Shown here: positions 3,079 to 57,701 of the stretch, piece after piece
How positions within the stretch are numbered: the first letter of the stretch is position 1
Layout of the letters: every line of letters starts with the position of its first letter
NCBI GenBank assembly: GCA_001804815.1
Contig: MHBI01000101.1
Coordinates: 44,791 to 108,790, forward strand
Reading direction: 5' to 3'
Length of the DNA: 64,000 bases
Source of the DNA: Lentisphaerae bacterium GWF2_50_93
Lineage (GTDB): Bacteria; Verrucomicrobiota; Lentisphaeria; Victivallales; GWF2-50-93
Position numbers and translations under genes: made by a program
Notes under the pieces: model-generated
What the model was told of the DNA's origin: nothing
The model's database searches: none
Seen by the model: the letters and a program-made list of their open reading frames with translations, nothing else

Positions 3079-4527
3079 TTACATCTGGTCAAGCTTCTCC
3101 TTCAGAAGCTTGTTGACAATCTGGGGATTGGCCTTGCCTTTGCTCAGCTTCATGACCTGGCCTACGAAGAACTGGATCACCGTGGTCTTTCCTTCCTTGT
3201 ACTGCTTGACCTGTGCCGGGTTCTGTTCTATCGACAAGACCACAAATTTATCAATGGCTGAATCATCGCTGATCTGCAGGAGTCCCTTCTCAGCGACTAT
3301 CTGCTTCGGAGTCTTCCCTCCTGAGAAAAGTTCGGAGAACACCTCTTTTGCCGACTTGCCGGTGATCGTTCCAGCACTGACGAGTTCTACAAGCTCGACA
3401 AGATGGCCGACTGGAACAGGATTCTTTTCAAACGGGATATTCCTGTCATTGAGCTCCCTGAGAAGTTCAGTTATGATCCAGTTTGCCAGCATTTTGGGGG
3501 ATTTCGCCTGTTTCGCACCTTCATCGAAATAATCTGAAAGAGTCTTGTCCTGGGTGAGAACCTGCGCATCGTATTCAGTCAGTCCCAAAGTTGCAACGAA
3601 TCTTGCACGCTTCTGCTCGGGAAGTTCAGGAAGAGTATTCTTAATTTTACCAATTTCTGAATCGGTGAAAGTCATCGGCAGAAGATCAGGTTCCGGAAAA
3701 TACCTGTAGTCATGCGCGTTTTCCTTGCTCCGGAGAAGATAGGTTTCACCGCGTTCATCGGTCCATCCACGTGTCTCCTGCATCAACCGGCCACCATTGT
3801 CCAGGATTTCCGCCTGCCTTACGATCTCATGTTCAATCGAACGGTGGGCAGAACGGAAGCTGTTGAGATTCTTTATCTCTATCTTTGTTCCAAACTCCTT
3901 GGCTCCGGCAAGCTTGAGGGATATGTTCACATCGCAGCGCATCTGCCCTTTTTCCATGTCGCAGTCGCTTATGTCCGCATACTGCATGATCTGCTTAAGC
4001 GCAGTAAGGTAGGCGTATGCCTCATCGGCAGAACACATGTCAGGTTCGCTTACAATCTCCATCAGAGGGACACCTGCCCTGTTGTAGTCAATACCGCTGT
4101 ATCCCGAAAAATGGTTCAGCTTGCCAACGTCCTCCTCAAGATGGATCCTTGTGATTCCAATGACCTTGTCCGGAAGATCATTCCCCGAAAAACCTTTCCC
4201 GAATATGTGTACGCCACCCCTGCCGCACAGAGGCAGATCATACTGGGTGATCTGGTAGTTCTTCGGCATGTCAGGATAAAAATAGCTCTTTCGGTCGAAC
4301 TTGCTGAATTTCGCGATCTCGCAGCCGCACATCAGCCCAGCCATTACAGTCTTCATGACTGCTTCACGGTTTGGATAAGGCATCACGCCGGGAAATCCCA
4401 TGCAGACAGGACATACCATCGTGTTCGGCTCCTGCCCGAACTTGTTCGGACATGAACAGAACATCTTGCTGTTCGTCCTTGCCTGGACATGCACTTCAAG
4501 ACCTATGACTATATCGTATTTTGACAT
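3079..4527 (-). CDS. gatB: Asp/Glu-tRNA amidotransferase subunit B
   Basis: 482 aa. The N-terminus 'YDIVIGLEVHVQ...TNSKMFCSCPN' is typical of GatB. A 2-nt gap separates it from gatA. Confidence 0.95.
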   Translation of the reverse strand: MSKYDIVIGLEVHVQARTNSKMFCSCPNKFGQEPNTMVCPVCMGFPGVMPYPNREAVMKTVMAGLMCGCEIAKFSKFDRKSYFYPDMPKNYQITQYDLPLCGRGGVHIFGKGFSGNDLPDKVIGITRIHLEEDVGKLNHFSGYSGIDYNRAGVPLMEIVSEPDMCSADEAYAYLTALKQIMQYADISDCDMEKGQMRCDVNISLKLAGAKEFGTKIEIKNLNSFRSAHRSIEHEIVRQAEILDNGGRLMQETRGWTDERGETYLLRSKENAHDYRYFPEPDLLPMTFTDSEIGKIKNTLPELPEQKRARFVATLGLTEYDAQVLTQDKTLSDYFDEGAKQAKSPKMLANWIITELLRELNDRNIPFEKNPVPVGHLVELVELVSAGTITGKSAKEVFSELFSGGKTPKQIVAEKGLLQISDDSAIDKFVVLSIEQNPAQVKQYKEGKTTVIQFFVGQVMKLSKGKANPQIVNKLLKEKLDQM

Positions 4528-4529
4528 AT

Positions 4530-5999
4530 TTAAATTCCGGGAATGAATTCCTTGATTGCCCTGTTCTTCTCAAAAATATGCGAAATCCGCAGAAGCTGCT
4601 TCTCTCCCATGTCCGGTCCGAGCAGCTGGATCCCTACAGGAAGTCCATTTTCATGTATATCAGCGGGAACGCTTATGCCGCAGATGCCTGCGAGATTCGT
4701 CGAAATCGTGAAAATATCGGCGAGATACATCTGGAGCGGATCAGATTTTTCGCCGAACTTGAATGCCGTCGTAGGAGAAACCGGGGTCAGGATCACATCG
4801 CATTTCCTGTACGCATCCTGGAAATCCCTCCTGATCAGAGTCCTGACCTTCTGTCCCTTTGTATAGTATGCATCATAATAACCGCTGCTGAGCACGAATG
4901 TCCCAAGGATTATCCTGCGCTTGACCTCGTCCCCGAATCCAGCTCCGCGGGTCTCAAGATATGTCTCCAGCAGATCGTCAGCCTTCATGCGGTTGCCATA
5001 GCGGATGCCGTCGAATCTTGCGAGATTCGCACTCGCTTCAGCCGTGGCAATCACATAATATGTTGCAACCGCATATTTTGAATGCGGCAGCGAGACCTGG
5101 ACCATCTCGGCGCCAAGATCCTTGAAGACCTGTATCGACTTCTCCATGGATTTACGAACGCCTGCATCAAGCCCCTCAATTTCAAAACATTCCTTGGGCA
5201 GCCCTATCCTGATCCCCTTGAGATCCTTGAGCCCTCCCAGGTCCTCTGAAAATATCTCGTTCGTATCCGGAAGCGAAGTCGCATCCCTGGAGTCCCTTCC
5301 GCACATGACATCTGTAAGAATTGCGGCGTCTTCAACATCACGGGTTATCGGACCGATCTGATCAAGGGAGGATGCAAATGCAATAAGACCGTAGCGGGAT
5401 ATCCTTCCATAGGTGGGTTTGAATCCGACAACACCACAAAAAGATGCAGGCTGGCGGATGGATCCACCTGTGTCGGACCCAAGGGCCGCTGTAACCTCAG
5501 CCGCAGACACGGACGCCGCGGAGCCACCGCTGGAACCACCAGGAACGCAATTGATGTTCCATGGATTGGCGGTCTTCTGATATGCGCTGTTCTCGCATGA
5601 TGACCCCATCGCGAATTCGTCCATGTTCGTCCTTCCAAAAAGGACAAAACCATTTGCCTTGAGCTTCCTTATAACTGTCGCATCATAGGGAGAAACAACC
5701 TTCTGCAGGATCTTTGAAGCACAGGTGCATGTCTGCCCCTTGACGGTAATATTGTCCTTGACAGCAAGAGGTATTCCATCAAACTGACCTAGCTTCCTGT
5801 TTTCAGCTCTTCTATCGTCTGATGCTTTCGCCTGAGATAAAACATCCTCTTCGTCTAGCTTAAGGAACGCCTTTACCTTCGGCTCCAGTTTTTTTGCACG
5901 TTCAATGTAGGCCTTGCACAATTCCGTCGAAGAGATCTTTTTCTCTTCAAGAAGTCTTGCGGCCTCGTGGATTGTAAAATTTTCAATTTTTATTGACAT
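4530..5999 (-). CDS. gatA: Asp/Glu-tRNA amidotransferase subunit A
   Basis: 489 aa with the amidase signature 'GGSSGGSAASV' and the N-terminal pattern 'ELCKAYIERAKKLEPKVKAF'. Confidence 0.95.
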   Translation of the reverse strand: MSIKIENFTIHEAARLLEEKKISSTELCKAYIERAKKLEPKVKAFLKLDEEDVLSQAKASDDRRAENRKLGQFDGIPLAVKDNITVKGQTCTCASKILQKVVSPYDATVIRKLKANGFVLFGRTNMDEFAMGSSCENSAYQKTANPWNINCVPGGSSGGSAASVSAAEVTAALGSDTGGSIRQPASFCGVVGFKPTYGRISRYGLIAFASSLDQIGPITRDVEDAAILTDVMCGRDSRDATSLPDTNEIFSEDLGGLKDLKGIRIGLPKECFEIEGLDAGVRKSMEKSIQVFKDLGAEMVQVSLPHSKYAVATYYVIATAEASANLARFDGIRYGNRMKADDLLETYLETRGAGFGDEVKRRIILGTFVLSSGYYDAYYTKGQKVRTLIRRDFQDAYRKCDVILTPVSPTTAFKFGEKSDPLQMYLADIFTISTNLAGICGISVPADIHENGLPVGIQLLGPDMGEKQLLRISHIFEKNRAIKEFIPGI

Positions 6000-6044
6000 C
6001 GGTATCTTTGTTTTCTACTTTCTAAATTCCACTTCCTAATTTCC

Positions 6045-6122
6045 CCCAACTTCAGAACTTCATCTACTTTGCGCCTCTGTGCCTTCTCCCAACTTTAGAA
6101 CTTCCGCACTCTAGAACTTCCT
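6045..6122 (-). repeat. Word repeats inside the 121-nt gatC-gatA spacer
   Basis: CCCAACTT(C/T)AGAACTTC at 6045 and 6088, and CTAGAACTTCC at 6111. The 19-mer at 6066-6084 is shared with 57442-57460, and the 15-mer at 6090-6104 with 46934-46948. Confidence 0.85.
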
Positions 6123-6432
6123 AATTCTCCTCCTCCCCCGGTATCACAGCAGGAACCTTTATGAGTTCCCCTCCGACAGTCTCTGGAGCGTTTGAAAGCA
6201 TCTCTTCACGCTGGAAAGGGGGTTCAGAGACATCGTCACGCAGCACATTCGTCATCTGGACGGCATGGGCAGTAGGTTCAATGTTGGAGACATCAAGCTC
6301 TGAAAGCGTGTCGACATAATTGAGAATCGTCTCCATTTCCTTCTGGAGGCGTTCCTCTTTTTCACTGTCAAGCTCAAGCCTGGCAAGCGCAGCGACGTAT
6401 TTTACGTCAATTATTCTCTTTTCCATAAGCAA
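6121..6432 (-). CDS. gatC: Asp/Glu-tRNA amidotransferase subunit C
   Basis: 103 aa with the GatC pattern 'VKYVAALARLELDSEKEERL...NYVDTLSELDVSN'. It lies upstream of gatA. The true start may be the Met two codons in. Confidence 0.85.
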   Translation of the reverse strand: MLMEKRIIDVKYVAALARLELDSEKEERLQKEMETILNYVDTLSELDVSNIEPTAHAVQMTNVLRDDVSEPPFQREEMLSNAPETVGGELIKVPAVIPGEEEN

Positions 6433-6441
6433 ACTTATCTT

Positions 6442-8103
6442 TTAGCTGCGCTCAAGGGCAAGCGTCTTCGTGGTCTGGTCGCAGACTTCGGAAGGTCCGA
6501 AATACTGGATCGGACCGGGATAGAGATATTCGGTTTCTACCGCCCATTCATCCCGGTTTTCAGCGAAAGTCTCGAACGGCTTGTCGTGGAGATCCACCAA
6601 TGACTTCTGTATGACAGGCTTTTCCTTGCCGTGCCTTCTCTCCATGTTCATCATCATCGTGATTGGAATTCCACCGCTCAACCACTGGTCGGATGGCTTT
6701 GTGAGATTTCTGACAGCCGCCATGTATCCCGTGCTTCCGCATCCGACAAGGGCCGCTGCCGTCGCGCCAAGGCTGTAGCAGTAATCAGCGTCAAAATTGG
6801 ACGGAGCCGCGCACCTGCCTTCATAACCAAGGAAATGCGTCTGCGCCTTGAATCTCACGTCCTTAACCTCGGACTTGCCCTGTGATTTCATGAGGCTCAT
6901 GCGGCTTTCGATCATCTGGATGAGCAGTTTTTCAGTTTCGATCATGGATACCTGCACGTTTCCATGCGGATCCCTGTCCTTTATGAGCTGTATCTGTATC
7001 TGCAGCGGCATTGAGACATAGACTGAGGCGGACTCATTGGAGAGCTTGCCCTTGATGAAGCTGGTCTTGTCTTCATCTGTCTTGAGGAAGTTGAGGGCCG
7101 ATTCATCCTTGGTCATTATTTCATTCAGCTCGTTGATGAGCTTCTTAATTTCCGGAATGAATTCGATCAGGCCTTCAGGAATGAGGACCACGCCGAAGTT
7201 CCTGCCTTTTTTGGCGCGCTTGCAGATAACCTTGACCATGTCGTCGACAATATCCGCAAGGGTCTGCTTCTTCTTTGCGACTTCCTCAGATATGATTGCG
7301 ATGTTCGGACGCGTCTGAAGCGCGCATTCAAGCGTGATGTGCGATGCAGAACGGCCCATGAGCCTTATGAAATGCCAGTATTTCCTCGCGGAATCGGCAT
7401 CCCGGCTGATGTTGCCGATAAGTTCGCTGTAGACCTTGCATGCAGTGTCGAATCCGAAAGAAGTCTCTATGAATAAGTTCTTAAGGTCTCCATCAATCGT
7501 CTTCGGACATCCAATCACCTGTATCGGAGTCCTCTTCATGCAATAATGCTCGGCAAGAAGACATGCATTGGTGTTTGAGTCATCTCCTCCTATCACGATA
7601 AGCGCGCTGATTCCGAGTTTCTTGCAGTTTTTCGCCGACTTCTCGAATTGCTCGGCAGTCTCAAGCTTCGTACGTCCGGAACCAATAATGTCAAATCCTC
7701 CGGTGTTCCTGTAGCTGCTAAGAAGTTCAGCCGTTATTTCAATGTACTTGTTCTCGACAAGACCGCTGGGTCCGCCAATGAAACCATACAGCTTGCACTT
7801 TTCATTGATTGATTTCAGACCGTCAAAAATCCCGGCTATGACATTGTGTCCGCCCGGGGCCTGTCCGCCCGAAAGAATTACTCCGACGTTGATAGGCTTT
7901 GCAGCTTTTTTCTGCGAACCTACGGAAAACTCAAGTATGGGTTTGCCGTAATTCACTGGAAAAAGTTTTTGAATGCTTTCCTGGTCGGATATCGATTCCG
8001 TCGGATCGCTTTTTGCAACTGTCACAAGAGCTCCGTTGGCAAATGCCGGAGGAAGCTTCGGCTCGTACGAGGCCCTGACTTTCTGAAGCACTGAAATTTC
8101 CAT
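6442..8103 (-). CDS. pfp: Diphosphate--fructose-6-phosphate 1-phosphotransferase (long-type PPi-PFK)
   Basis: 553 aa with the motifs 'GGDDSNTNA', 'PKTIDGDL' and '[11 protein letters not shown]'. It ends 9 nt upstream of the gatC start. Confidence 0.9.
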
Positions 8104-12585: not shown

Positions 12586-12616
12586 TTGTTAGTTGTTAAG
12601 TCCGTAAGGGCTGTTC
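12586..12616 (+). repeat. GTAG-hairpin repeat, copy A
   Basis: TGTTAGTTGTTA, then AGTCC-GTAA-GGGCT (one U.G pair), then GTTC. Confidence 0.5.
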
Positions 12617-18748: not shown

Positions 18749-18772
18749 AATTTAACTGAATGGATATTCAGA

Positions 18773-19012
18773 TTATTTTGCTGCTGCAGGAGCGGCCTTC
18801 TTGGCAGCTTCGTCAGCGGCCTTCTGGCATGCGGGGCAGAGCTTCTTGACGGCGTCTTTAGCAGCGCCTTCGTTGAGCTTTACGCATTCTGTGCAAGCTT
18901 TCATTCCGCATTTTGCTTCGGCCTTGGCATCGCACTTAGGCGCTGCCTCCTCGGCATAGACTCCCATTGACATTGCGACTGCGACGACTGTGGCGATCAT
19001 CATTTTCTTCAT
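18773..19012 (-). CDS. Small secreted Lys/Ala-rich protein with CxxC motifs (79 aa), paralog 1
   Basis: RBS GGAGAG precedes the ATG at 19012. The signal peptide is 'MKKMMIATVVAVAMSMGVYA', and six Cys include 'CTEC' and 'CPAC'. The longer ORF listed in the track (to 19099) lacks an RBS. Confidence 0.6.
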   Translation of the reverse strand: MKKMMIATVVAVAMSMGVYAEEAAPKCDAKAEAKCGMKACTECVKLNEGAAKDAVKKLCPACQKAADEAAKKAAPAAAK

Positions 19013-19084
19013 TTGCTCTCTCCATGTTAGTTTTTCATTTGGCGGTCTAAGATACATGGAATTTACATTTTTACAATCAATAAC

Positions 19085-19121
19085 AAAAAAACGCGCCATG
19101 TGTTTTGCACGTGGCGCGTTT
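19085..19121 (-). terminator. Rho-independent terminator of small CxxC gene 2
   Basis: Same stem as at 18717-18744, followed on the minus strand by TTTTTTT. Confidence 0.8.
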
Positions 19122-19148
19122 AAAATTCAAACTGAATAAATATTCAGA

Positions 19149-19385
19149 TTATTTCTTTGCTGCAGGAGCGGCCTTCTTGGCAGCTTCGTCAGCGGCCTTC
19201 TGGCATGCAGGGCAGAGCTTCTTGACGGCGTCTTTAGCAGCGCCTTCATTGAGCTTTGCGCAGTCAGCGCAGACTTTTGCTTCAACTTTTGCATCTGCTT
19301 TTGCAGGAGCCTTAGCTTCCTCGGCAGCATAGACGCCCATTGACATTGCGACTGCGACAAGTGCGACGATCATTACTTTCTTCAT
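19149..19385 (-). CDS. Small secreted Lys/Ala-rich protein with CxxC motifs (78 aa), paralog 2
   Basis: RBS AGGAGAG. The signal peptide is 'MKKVMIVALVAVAMSMGVYA', with 'CADC' and 'CPAC' motifs. The C-terminal 'KLNEGAAKDAVKKLCPACQKAADEAAKKAAPAA' is identical to paralog 1. Confidence 0.65.
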   Translation of the reverse strand: MKKVMIVALVAVAMSMGVYAAEEAKAPAKADAKVEAKVCADCAKLNEGAAKDAVKKLCPACQKAADEAAKKAAPAAKK

Positions 19386-19525
19386 TTCTTCTCTCCTCTT
19401 GTTTTATGCCTTGATGGCATTGTTTATTTATGCAGCCATCAAAGATACATAAAAAAAGCTTTTTTTCAACATAACCGTTTTTAATTATGTGTAAGTTCAT
19501 TATATTTAACCAGTTTTAATTTGTA

Positions 19526-39620: not shown

Positions 39621-39667
39621 TTTTATTGTATTTGTTTACCTATTATTGATACTCAATTCGTGATTGT

Positions 39668-39692
39668 TTCGAATTTCGACATTCGAATTTCG
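39668..39692. repeat. Inverted counterpart array (right flank of the four-helix-bundle gene)
   Basis: TTCGAATTTCG occurs at 39668 and 39682 (14-nt period). The reverse complement GTCGAAATTCGAAT matches the left unit TTCGAAATCCGAAT at 12 of 14 nt. Confidence 0.8.
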
Positions 39693-42170: not shown

Positions 42171-42201
42171 CTGTTCGTAGTCAAGCTCGCAAGAGCTGTT
42201 C
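42171..42201 (+). repeat. GTAG-hairpin repeat, copy B
   Basis: CTGTTCGTAGTCA, then AGCTC-GCAA-GAGCT, then GTTC. Confidence 0.6.
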
Positions 42202-46051: not shown

Positions 46052-46944
46052 ATATGCCGTCTGAAAACAGCAGTCCGGGCGTCATCCATCCTCCGTGTGG
46101 GGGGTGCTGCACGCGTCTTGACGGTTTCGGTGTTTCAATAGGGGGAAGCACGATACTGAAGGACATCAACCTGCACGTCCACTGCGGGGAGCTCACCGCG
46201 ATCATCGGGCCCAACGGCGCAGGAAAGACCACCCTGCTCAGGGCGATGATTGGGGAGATCCCGCACAGGGGGGAACTCCATTTCGTACATTCGGACGGCT
46301 CCTCCTTTGGAAAGCCGAGAATTGGCTATGTTCCGCAGAAACTTGACATCGACAAGACGGCGCCTGTCAGCGTCCTTGATCTTTTCTTCTCCCTGAGTTC
46401 GCGGTATCCCCTATGGTTCGGACACATCTACGGGGCAAAGAAGAACGCCTTGAAGATGCTCAAGATGGTTGAAGCCGAGGAATACGCCAGCATGAAGATC
46501 TCCCAGCTTTCATGCGGACAGTTCCAGAGGGTGATGCTCGCCATGGCGCTGAGCCCCATCCCCGACCTGCTGCTCCTCGATGAACCGATCGCAGGAGTGG
46601 ACAAGGCCGGAATCGAAGTCTTCTACAGGATCGCATCCCGCATCAGGAGGGAGTACGACCTCTCGATCTTCCTGATTTCCCACGACATCGCGGAAGTTGC
46701 GAAGTTCGCAGACAGGATGATACTCCTGAACAGGACAATCCTCTGCGACGGCGCTCCTGAAAAAGTAATGGCTTCGCCTGAATTGAAACAGATATTCGGG
46801 TTTGATTATTCACCGCCCGCAAAAACACCTGAAAAGGAACTGCGGCTGATTGGAAGGCATGACTGTCCGACCTGCGGGAACTGCAGCGGAAAGAAAGCTG
46901 AGGACAGCAAACAGATGACGGAAGACTGGGGGGGGAAGTTCTAA
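46048..46944 (+). CDS. Metal ABC transporter ATPase (ZnuC-like) with a Cys-containing C-terminal tail
   Basis: Walker A 'GPNGAGKTT', signature 'LSCGQFQR' and Walker B 'LLLLDEP'. The extra roughly 45-aa tail carries 'HDCPTCGNC'. Confidence 0.9.
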   Translation: MNMPSENSSPGVIHPPCGGCCTRLDGFGVSIGGSTILKDINLHVHCGELTAIIGPNGAGKTTLLRAMIGEIPHRGELHFVHSDGSSFGKPRIGYVPQKLDIDKTAPVSVLDLFFSLSSRYPLWFGHIYGAKKNALKMLKMVEAEEYASMKISQLSCGQFQRVMLAMALSPIPDLLLLDEPIAGVDKAGIEVFYRIASRIRREYDLSIFLISHDIAEVAKFADRMILLNRTILCDGAPEKVMASPELKQIFGFDYSPPAKTPEKELRLIGRHDCPTCGNCSGKKAEDSKQMTEDWGGKF

Positions 46945-46959
46945 AGTTCTAAAGTTCTA
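46931..46959 (+). repeat. (AAGTTCTA)x3 tandem words preceded by a G-run, at the znuC stop
   Basis: 8-nt units at 46936, 46944 and 46952. GGAAGTTCTAAAGTT is identical to the reverse complement of 6090-6104. Confidence 0.85.
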
Positions 46960-47966: not shown

Positions 47967-47986
47967 GGAGAACACGATTTTCGATA

Positions 47987-48059
47987 TTTGATGCTGGATG
48001 CCTGATGCTGGATTTGAGGGGATTTTATAAAATCCAAATGCCAGATTCCAGTATCAATC
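47987..48059. repeat. Imperfect long hairpin built from TGATGCTGGAT direct repeats (14-nt period) around a perfect 16-nt palindrome
   Basis: TGATGCTGGAT at 47989 and 48003; GGATTTTATAAAATCC at 48020-48035; 8 further pairs outside it. It lies between convergent genes. Confidence 0.7.
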
Positions 48060-48086
48060 TACAAGTATCGAATTCCGATTCGGAAA

Positions 48087-51779: not shown

Positions 51780-51944
51780 GATTGGATTGTTGGATAATTG
51801 GATGAATGGGTTTGAATTCAACGGGATACAAAACATGCGAGAAGACATGGAAACATCTGAAAAATTATTTCATGGATTTCACATCGGTTTTTATTATTCC
51901 CATGCCCTTCATACCCAACCATCCAGCAATCCATTAATCCAATC
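51780..51944. mobile_element. MITE-like 165-bp element with 37-nt imperfect terminal inverted repeats made of 8-nt TTGGAT words
   Basis: The left arm (51780-51816) and the reverse complement of the right arm (51908-51944) match at 29 of 37 positions. The left arm reads GATTGGAT TGTTGGAT AATTGGAT GAATGGGT. Confidence 0.5.
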
Positions 51945-51965
51945 ATCCATGGGCTGGAAGTAAGC

Positions 51966-56775: not shown

Positions 56776-56925
56776 GTAAGCGTTAAGCTTGGCATATCGG
56801 CCTCTTTTAAGGCATTCAAGTATGGCTCTTTCGCCGAAAGAGCCTCGAGCCACTTTCGGCGAAAGTGGCATACTTTAACAAAATATGTCCAATTGCCTAC
56901 GGACAAAAGGCAGCTTAACGCTTAC
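56776..56925. mobile_element. MITE-like 150-bp element with perfect 14-bp TIRs and an internal three-way-junction module (copy 2)
   Basis: GTAAGCGTTAAGCT (56776-56789) pairs with AGCTTAACGCTTAC (56912-56925). The internal module at 56818-56875 reads AAGTATG, GGCTCTTTCG/CGAAAGAGCC, TCGA, GCCACTTTCG/CGAAAGTGGC, ATACTT. Confidence 0.55.
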
Positions 56926-57419: not shown

Positions 57420-57425
57420 CCGCGG

Positions 57426-57460
57426 AGGCACAGAGTTGCAAAGGCACAGAGGCACAAAGT
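57426..57460 (+). repeat. GGCACAGAG words, including a 19-mer shared with the gatC-gatA spacer
   Basis: AGGCACAGAGGCACAAAGT (57442-57460) matches the reverse complement of 6066-6084 (AGGCACAGAGGCGCAAAGT) at 18 of 19 nt. Confidence 0.8.
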
Positions 57461-57582
57461 TTTTGAATCATCCTATTTTGCGATTCGCCTCTTTCGTGGT
57501 TTAAATCATGTTTAAAGTAAAAAGAAATAGTTTACTCAAAACAGCCCTCACGGGCTTAACTACAAACAAATTTAATTCGTAT

Positions 57583-57613
57583 CTGTTCGTAGTTAATGCC
57601 GTAAGGCATGTTC
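57583..57613 (+). repeat. GTAG-hairpin repeat, copy C
   Basis: CTGTTCGTAGTTA, then ATGCC-GTAA-GGCAT, then GTTC. Confidence 0.6.
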
Positions 57614-57701
57614 AAATTGCCTTAGATGCTTTGTGCTGGAGTTTATCCCGATTCTACGATAGACATCGGGACGCCTCTGCGTCTTTGTGCCAGGATTTAC
57701 T

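Follow-up and report, generated by a model that had tools for sequence, protein, structure and literature searches.

The stretch of DNA analysed here (the window, 64,000 nt) belongs to Lentisphaerae bacterium GWF2_50_93, an uncultured member of the Lentisphaeria (Victivallales); assembly GCA_003516325.1 represents the same species. On the minus strand of the window lies a pfk-gatCAB gene cluster in which gatC and gatA are separated by a spacer filled with short repeats, the element that concerns us. The genes and the spacer are arranged as follows.

6442-8103, minus strand: pfk, the upstream gene of pfk-gatCAB.
6121-6426, minus strand: gatC (Pfam GatC), whose TAG stop codon (6121-6123) adjoins the repeat array.
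6000-6120, minus strand: the gatC-gatA spacer (gat spacer), a period-8 tandem-repeat tract, from autocorrelation and Tandem Repeats Finder (TRF) arrays.
4530-5999, minus strand: gatA (Pfam Amidase).
3079-4527, minus strand: gatB (Pfam GatB_N/GatB_Yqey).

Gene coordinates and Pfam matches agree with the distances given in the initial annotation of this DNA, 2 nt between gatA and gatB and 121 nt between gatC and gatA. The spacer sequence is the same in three assemblies and has allelic versions in four further ones, which rules out an assembly artefact. The final residue of GatC is N in the source and S in relatives that lack the spacer.

The sense strand of the spacer is purine-rich and C-poor (A46 G40 T24 C11), and its autocorrelation shows an identity of 0.43 at lag 8 (p = 0.0004 against shuffles). 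TRF delimits arrays at 6013-6044 and 6091-6119, and elsewhere in the window at 46936-46959 and 57425-57459. The octamer unit consists of a RAG core (AAG or GAG), then G or T, then three variable bases; on the mRNA strand the grammar is RRAG-K-NNN, exemplified by GAAGTTCT, AGAGTGCG, AAAGTTGG and ACAGAGGC. The order of units on that strand is GAAGTTCT AGAGTGCG GAAGTTCT AAAGTTGG GAGAAGGC ACAGAGGC GCAAAGTA GAT GAAGTTCT GAAGTTGG, followed by a 14-nt pair and a leader. From gatC to gatA, the parts are:

6089-6120, minus strand: two 16-nt units, GAAGTTCTAGAGTGCG and GAAGTTCTAAAGTTGG, directly 3' of the gatC stop and holding a 15-mer (6091-6105) that recurs elsewhere.
6065-6088, minus strand: module GAGAAGGCACAGAGGCGCAAAGTA, with a recurrent 19-mer (6066-6084).
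6046-6061, minus strand: the third GAAGTTCT unit, GAAGTTCTGAAGTTGG.
6013-6044, minus strand: the 14-nt repeat pair TTAGGAAGTGGAAT / TTAGAAAGTAGAAA (TRF period 14).
6000-6012, minus strand: the A-rich gatA leader ACAAAGATACCG, then ATG; AAAGATACNG-ATG is kept in all four known alleles.

The repeated words first reported in the spacer are present, CCCAACTT(C/T)AGAACTTC at 6045-6061 and 6088-6104 and CTAGAACTTCC at 6111-6121. Because of the lag-8 periodicity, the two word families distinguished at that time are phases of one 8-nt grammar.

Neither strand of the spacer folds better than its shuffles (z = -0.41 and +0.68), and Rfam 15 yields no match at gathering score across the whole window and none at E <= 1 within 5850-6300. 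These results do not favour the earlier idea of an mRNA processing or stability module. The companion idea, that the spacer is a cassette scar or landing site, is not supported either: target duplications, attC-like features and a recurrent neighbour gene are all absent, and the integron attC test found no inverted repeat or structure in the spacer and no integrase-like neighbour. Within 6000-6120 there are no promoter-like (sigma-70 -35/-10) or terminator-like (GC hairpin plus T run) sites, which, together with the conserved pfk-gatCAB order, suggests that the spacer is co-transcribed with pfk-gatCAB. A bridging open reading frame (ORF) like that of mycobacterial interspersed repetitive units (MIRU) is ruled out, as TAG, TAA and TGA codons close all three frames. 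The gatA leader has no canonical Shine-Dalgarno (SD) sequence; only about one third of the genes in the window have an SD-like motif, and SD-independent A-rich leaders are common in the source genome.

Comparison of gatC-gatA spacers in relatives, which the initial annotation had proposed, reveals three overlapping junctions and four length alleles. In L006/L007, L008/L009 and L010 (L numbers denote comparison loci), where GatA is 89%, 86% and 76% identical to that of the source, gatC and gatA overlap at TGATG (...GAGGAGTCCTGATGTC...). Four related genomes or populations, the source included, carry spacers of 91 to 282 nt.

Source allele, 121 nt: the reference.
L004 allele, 282 nt: a super-unit of ~64-72 nt duplicated, plus a nested hairpin-bearing insertion of ~120 nt; contains the 19-mer module.
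L180 allele, 129 nt: the 19-mer module once.
L179 allele, 91 nt: without the 19-mer module.

The first 16 nt (GAAGTTCTAGAGTGCG) are identical in all four alleles and the ends are similar (AGGAAGTRGAA...AAAGATACNG-ATG), while the interior varies by repeat units. L004 and L180 share 100% identity over the first 260 residues of GatA, and their spacers are 153 nt apart in length. The matrix of GatA identities is compatible with a single gain by the common ancestor of the genomes that bear the spacer. The gat spacer is an insertion specific to this lineage, placed where gatC and gatA once overlapped, and its length changes fast. The hairpin nested in the 282-nt allele, GTAAATATTCA...TGAATATTTAC (L004 860-900), recurs at 35 of 40 positions in another Lentisphaeria contig (L131 834-873) and is therefore itself a small dispersed repeat.

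Words of the gat spacer are found at two further loci of the window. The 15-mer GGAAGTTCTAAAGTT occurs exactly at 6091-6105 (-) and at 46934-46948 (+), the latter between genes for an ABC ATPase and an ABC-3 permease (znuC/znuB-like); the match had been reported correctly, with gat coordinates that were off by one. At two or fewer mismatches the window holds five matches to it, compared with 0.07 expected from dinucleotide-preserving shuffles. The 19-mer AGGCACAGAGGCGCAAAGT at 6066-6084 (-) agrees with 57442-57460 (+) in 18 of 19 positions, as first described, and the same kind of shuffle gives a chance expectation of 0.00. A third copy, with three mismatches, lies at 57426-57444. These copies are flanked by genes for an extracytoplasmic function (ECF) sigma factor and a zf-HC2 anti-sigma factor, and the spacer there obeys the octamer grammar (AGAGTTGC AAAGGCAC AGAGGCAC AAAGTTTT). 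The claim that the shared words follow the sense of the flanking operon at the three loci holds for every copy in the window.

We give almost no credence to the view that these words are chance matches between low-complexity, purine-rich spacers. The tracts are indeed compositionally biased, and tandem repetition cuts their information content. Nevertheless, shuffles that preserve dinucleotides expect only 0.07 and 0.00 matches, tandem controls of the same composition reach 0-8 where the word itself reaches 27 in the phage contigs described below, homologous alleles exist in other assemblies, and 20 of 21 positions agree between the source gat spacer and the L130 znu spacer. As an explanation of the shared words, chance is already refuted.

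At the znuC-znuB locus, the 15-mer is part of a short array.

46934-46959, plus strand: the znuC-end array GG(AAGTTCTA)x3, from TRF and comparison with relatives.

The final two codons of the ABC ATPase gene and its TAA stop (46942-46944) come from this array. The spacer measures 155 nt in the window versus 106, 40 and 38 nt in relatives. In L130, from the genome that carries L004, it holds GGAAGT-GAATTTAGAAAGTA, the segment with the 20/21 match to the 3' part (14-nt pair region) of the source gat spacer; because of this match, the likeness between the loci exceeds the two words originally noted. The DNA that encodes the last 20-30 residues of ZnuC is purine-rich and, by inspection, has a 7-nt period (window 46860-46944; L130 7915-7975; L131 7625-7686, for example CAGAAGT CAGAGGA CAGACGG in L131), and the C-terminal tails are wholly different between close relatives of the clade. 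From the DNA, repeat arrays appear to have been recruited as ZnuC protein tails.

The sigma/anti-sigma spacer contains a larger, composite structure.

57420-57697, plus strand: composite element of ~280 nt, with inverted octamer arrays around hairpins.
57424-57459, plus strand: left terminal array (purine strand) with the 19-mer relatives at 57426-57444 and 57442-57460, the second reaching one base beyond the array.
57540-57563 and 57583-57613: inner hairpins, conserved.
57628-57636 and 57672-57691: right pyrimidine arm, split by a nested hairpin (57646-57671).

The predicted RNA fold of the element (-90 kcal/mol, z = -5.5) pairs the terminal arrays. It is present at the orthologous site of a Victivallis metagenome-assembled genome (MAG; L181, 3717-4000), whereas L182 has 20 nt instead, and the sigma spacer is expanded in comparison with relatives. 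No target-site duplication is definable, and the outermost bases are locus-specific. Reading GGCAC-N4-TTGCA in this spacer as a sigma-54 promoter was rejected on inspection, as its spacing falls short by one base and TTGC is missing from other copies. The inner hairpin at 57583-57613 belongs to a dispersed family of the form GTTCGTAGTTAA-stem-GNRA-stem-TGTTC, with members at 12586-12616 and 42171-42201 (-) in the window and at ~3990-4020 in L060. The stems display compensatory changes (GCC/GGC, TCC/GGG, CTC/GAG), and a GTAG motif adjoins the hairpin, as in repetitive extragenic palindromic (REP) sequences. Its partner, ACAGCCCnnnnGGGCTTAACTAC, occupies 57540-57563. For the anti-sigma gene (zf-HC2 plus VWA, ~1064 aa), an upstream in-frame GTG at 57687 falls inside the repeat arm; the start is probably ATG 57702 (MNCIKYSKMMTD..., conserved in L181 and L182) rather than this GTG. 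Upstream of the ECF sigma gene, in a gap of 230 nt, lies a near-perfect 64-nt palindrome at 56815-56878 (32-nt arms, no loop, 84% complementary).

The 19-mer word is not confined to this lineage. Genomes were scanned with AAGGCRCAGAGGCRCAAAG, one genome per species, and all counts are among the matches listed, from which the source species is absent. The word is found in at least 119 stretches compared with ~17 expected from a uniform-composition estimate. The carriers listed are Victivallis, Flavobacterium isolates, Cytophagales, Scytonema, Prochloron, Chloroploca and other Chloroflexi, together with Acidobacteria, Thermodesulfobacteriota, Nitrospiraceae, Firmicutes, Opitutales, Phycisphaerae and others. 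In phage contigs it occurs in 27 stretches (38 matches), against 0, 4 and 8 for tandem controls of the same composition. These controls are two permuted words and the reversed word (8 stretches), the last of which is not independent, GAAACACGGAGACACGG being part of the same vocabulary. In Firmicutes and Desulfobacterota MAGs (L031, L032, L067, L098, L104, L106, L110), GTAACTACTCAGG(C/T)(A/T)CAAAGG is conserved 5' of the 19-mer word, which points to longer, genome-specific repeat families that may have been built around the array. Phage contigs L142 (3540-3760 and 4560-4680) and L153 (4380-4440) have octamer arrays in frame inside a gene, where they encode a hydrophilic linker of variable length (GTKAQRHK; ..EEGTKAQRHKGTEEEGRE..) between the conserved flanks ..WLEE and RVFDQVPR...

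The 19-mer arrays mostly comprise 2-4 units and have sharp borders; their central units are conserved, and the outer unit is particular to the locus. By a strict regular expression, 36 of the 126 matches are accompanied by an inverted array 14-384 nt downstream and none by one upstream, a count blind to the degenerate pairs in reverse order that are visible by eye in L125 and L135. The outermost bases of paired arrays are complementary between arms and vary among loci. When 766 ORFs from 119 loci were compared all against all by BLASTP, only generic families recurred, with no transposase, REP-associated tyrosine transposase (RAYT) or shared neighbour. No transposase lies between or near the arrays in ~160 loci, and the 3.8-kb interval between two matches in L145 and L157 is ordinary phage sequence. 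The TRF period spectrum of 1.06 Mb of carrier loci peaks at 8 (200 arrays), 7 (120) and 9 (40); these loci are rich in other 7-9-nt arrays with very diverse, unrelated units. A literature search for the literal repeat words found no relevant paper.

Orientation was evaluated on crude longest-ORF gene calls. The raw count of 19-mer matches within 60 nt downstream of a stop codon (37 sense versus 8 antisense) is inflated because paired elements have one polarity. Restricting the count to unpaired copies gives 22 sense versus 5 antisense within 60 nt of a stop codon (p = 0.0015) and 21 versus 7 in codirectional spacers (p = 0.013). Approximately 80% of unpaired copies are sense, and arrays often sit directly 3' of stop codons. 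The bias recurs for arrays with a T-free sense strand, at 54 versus 24 in codirectional spacers and 57 versus 14 near stop codons. For arrays of unrelated units, the sense strand has G>C in 38 versus 33 cases (no bias) and the purine bias is weak (49 versus 31), so that Rho avoidance by a G>C sense strand is ruled out as a general rule. The dispersed, oriented family proposed in the initial annotation is thus corroborated in other genomes, both by the recurrence of the words and by the sense bias of the unpaired copies.

Taken as a whole, the gat spacer is an inserted repeat tract of 8-nt period from a dispersed modular family. In our view it is more probably a tolerated passenger than a regulatory device in its own right, a reading towards which we lean on balance. 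That it is tolerated inside an essential operon is firm. The tract entered the overlapping gatC stop/gatA start (TGATG), in a history that fits one gain in the clade, and has since changed by gain and loss of 8-, 14-, 16- and ~64-nt units and by nested insertions; the unit-sized indels suggest slipped-strand or unequal exchange as the mechanism. It would be transcribed inside pfk-gatCAB as an unstructured, C- and U-poor stretch. Since every frame of the spacer is closed by stops, translational coupling of gatA to gatC would be lost, and gatA may initiate independently from the A-rich leader that precedes it. Such initiation is plausible, given that SD-like motifs are restricted to about one third of the genes. 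The sense bias could mark the orientation that is harmless in mRNA, as an antisense version would be pyrimidine-rich and supply GUG/UUG starts, and the U-free words would then be without stop codons.

Several observations count against the passenger reading. A model of slippage alone leaves unaccounted for the recurrence of identical 19-24-mers across many phyla (the 119 or more stretches where ~17 are expected) and the 27 stretches in phage contigs where the controls have 0, 4 and 8, and it gives no reason for arrays of mostly only 2-4 units. The polarity of paired arrays (36 downstream and 0 upstream by the strict count, with degenerate pairs in reverse order in L125 and L135) is likewise not accounted for by it. 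The spacer is kept across species-level divergence with its first 16 nt and 3' end conserved, which could indicate function, and the idea of a C-poor, Rho-avoiding transcript is not general, given the 38 versus 33 split.

Some of these features would be expected if the arrays were RNA binding platforms, with RAG triplets every 8 nt, typically three or four times, recognized by a multimeric RNA-binding protein or by the ribosome/S1. TRAP and HutP read triplet arrays on RNA in this manner. Such a factor would adjust how the downstream cistron is translated or, where arrays are paired, would compete with the long hairpin. The near-fixed 2-4 units with sharp borders, the sense bias directly after stops and before starts, the placement of the purine array first and its complement second, the pairing of the terminal arrays in the predicted fold of the sigma element, and the conservation of the 5' 16 nt of the gat spacer across diverged alleles are all in line with such a role, and binding by S1, Csp or CsrA proteins has been hypothesized for TAACTGA repeats (PMC4679880). 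We nonetheless consider it unlikely. No candidate protein and no shared neighbour gene family were found, the same genomes have dozens of unrelated 7-9-nt units that would each need their own reader, the number of gat units varies freely (L179 is without the 19-mer module), and the symmetry of inverted repeats makes polarity independent of the direction of transcription. The cross-phylum words could instead be accounted for by horizontal spread, if the arrays were the ends, in the form of multi-repeat terminal inverted repeats, of non-autonomous small mobile elements mobilized by a transposase encoded elsewhere. On this view the sigma element would be intact, and the gat and znu tracts would represent ends that are solo or decayed. 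Orthologous sites that differ in presence or absence (gat, znu and sigma), paired inverted arrays with interiors of 14-384 nt and one consistent polarity, the intact ~280-nt composite shared with L181, nested insertions and the occurrence in phage contigs fit this picture, as do the Geobacter insertion sequence (IS) elements located at a fixed distance from analogous sites (PMC2700814). Even so, mobility of this kind seems rather improbable, as no target-site duplication is definable, the outermost unit is the least conserved and locus-specific, which is the opposite of transposon tips, transposases are absent between or near the arrays in ~160 loci, and the gat tract has no inverted partner.

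By analogy with the Geobacter octanucleotides, for which Aklujkar et al. proposed IHF/HU, the arrays might be DNA sites for a nucleoid-associated or global regulator. The arrays match the Geobacter description in having three to four tandem octamers, little conservation of the outer units, and frequent pairing across strands over variable distances. A strand bias relative to genes is, however, not expected of duplex binding, and the gat site is absent from close relatives and varies freely in length. We know of no 8-bp direct-repeat binder conserved across phyla, and regard this role as very improbable.

It is conceivable, though doubtful, that CARAG-type octamer arrays (for example ACGCAAAGGCGCAGAGGCGCAAAG and GGCACAAAGGCACAGAGGCACAAAG) represent an undescribed class of sequence-specific element. 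Behind this lie their presence in more than 12 phyla and in phage contigs, the near-fixed 3-4 units, the strong polarity of paired copies with the purine array first, the preference for sites after stop codons, and the entry into tight or overlapping junctions. Such a class would imply a trans-acting factor of wide conservation, be it an enzyme that mobilizes the arrays or an RNA/DNA-binding protein recognizing RAG triplets 8 nt apart. That one octamer vocabulary, governed by rules of length, polarity and position, is shared by phyla and phage contigs suggests a common factor.

The gatCAB case is a natural experiment in which the overlapping junction of an essential, stoichiometric operon was split and 91-282 nt are tolerated. 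The outcome suggests that gatC-gatA translational coupling is dispensable in this SD-poor lineage. The spacer could also serve as a typing marker of the variable number tandem repeat (VNTR) kind for strains of these uncultured Lentisphaeria. In itself it is moderately interesting, and the cross-phylum octamer vocabulary is the stronger lead; arrays of 7-9-nt units recur in large environmental bacterial genomes.

The window holds further repeats. Octamer arrays of ATTGGATA and an inverted copy ~125 nt downstream (51781-51803 and 51928-51950) form a long hairpin (-70 kcal/mol) between codirectional genes. A GATGCTG heptamer array with its imperfect complement (47985-48070) makes a hairpin between convergent genes, with -38 kcal/mol for 47967-48086. 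The 75-nt spacer between another pair of codirectional genes has a 7-nt-period array at 39667-39692 (-), with a TRF consensus of TTTCGAA (+) that reads as CGAAATT-type on the mRNA. Finally, a tandem duplication at 18754-19396 (84-86% identity, ~375-nt period) encompasses two small minus-strand genes with MKKK..-type starts, and may be the feature called 'E1-E2' in the initial annotation.

With respect to known systems, MIRU reportedly have units of 40-100 bp whose small ORFs overlap the neighbouring stop and start codons and keep translational coupling. The gat spacer resembles them as a tandem repeat between operon genes, in one orientation to transcription and with strain-variable copy number; its 8-nt unit and three closed frames set it apart from that group. 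REP sequences and bacterial interspersed mosaic elements (BIMEs), REPINs and the small dispersed repeats of cyanobacteria are described as very small, intergenic and often nested (in the account of PMC3116915 and Elhai et al. 2008 cited therein). The present repeats are likewise sometimes inverted doublets, present or absent between close relatives. Unlike palindromic, RAYT-linked REPs, the gat tract is not palindromic, no RAYT was seen, and 6000-6120 holds no inverted partner; within the sigma element, it is the GTAG-plus-hairpin modules that look more like REPs. In terms of miniature inverted-repeat transposable elements (MITEs), the gat tract is without terminal inverted repeats or target-site duplication, and the sigma element has inverted arrays with no definable duplication.

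The gat spacer is best read as a member of the known class of prokaryotic tandem repeats with 5-11-nt units. Cyanobacterial short tandemly repeated repetitive (STRR) heptamers are a related short-unit class. Long simple sequence repeats (SSRs) of prokaryotes have 5-11-nt units, mostly heptamers, and are ascribed to slippage (Mrazek et al. 2007, as summarized in PMC4679880). The spacer exhibits what defines SSRs and VNTRs, namely short-unit iteration above chance and length polymorphism between close relatives. In common with SSRs and STRR heptamers, the repeats are mostly intergenic, head-to-tail units of 7-8 nt, with variable length attributed to slippage and no established function, in non-pathogens with large genomes. 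Distinct from SSRs are the 8-nt unit with its degenerate grammar, the short, mosaic arrays, the same words across phyla, and the location of the gat copy inside an essential, formerly overlapping junction. TAACTGA heptamers are common to Beggiatoaceae, Cyanobacteria and Bacteroidetes without an evident transfer mechanism (MacGregor 2015, PMC4679880). They too are intergenic arrays of 2-6 short units that run forward to genes in distant phyla, at sites where a canonical SD is rare. The period here is 8 rather than 7, however, and TAACTGA repeats lie directly upstream of starts, whereas the present arrays are mostly after stops and often paired with an inverted array. The gat spacer is not of the TAACTGA type, from which it differs in unit and period, sharing only the forward orientation.

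The 'global regulator binding sites' of classes 1-3 in Geobacter metallireducens are made up of three to five repeats of 7-9 nt in tandem, with little conservation in the outer ones (Aklujkar et al. 2009, PMC2700814). They are usually paired on opposite strands at variable distance, with IS elements at a fixed distance (PMC2700814). Those sites come from one genome and are read as IHF/HU sites, and the gat tract differs from them in being unpaired, longer and length-polymorphic. The paired arrays described here, on the other hand, have the same architecture, and CACGGAGA-type words, found beside the 19-mer word, are complementary to TCTCCGTS, the Geobacter class 2 unit.

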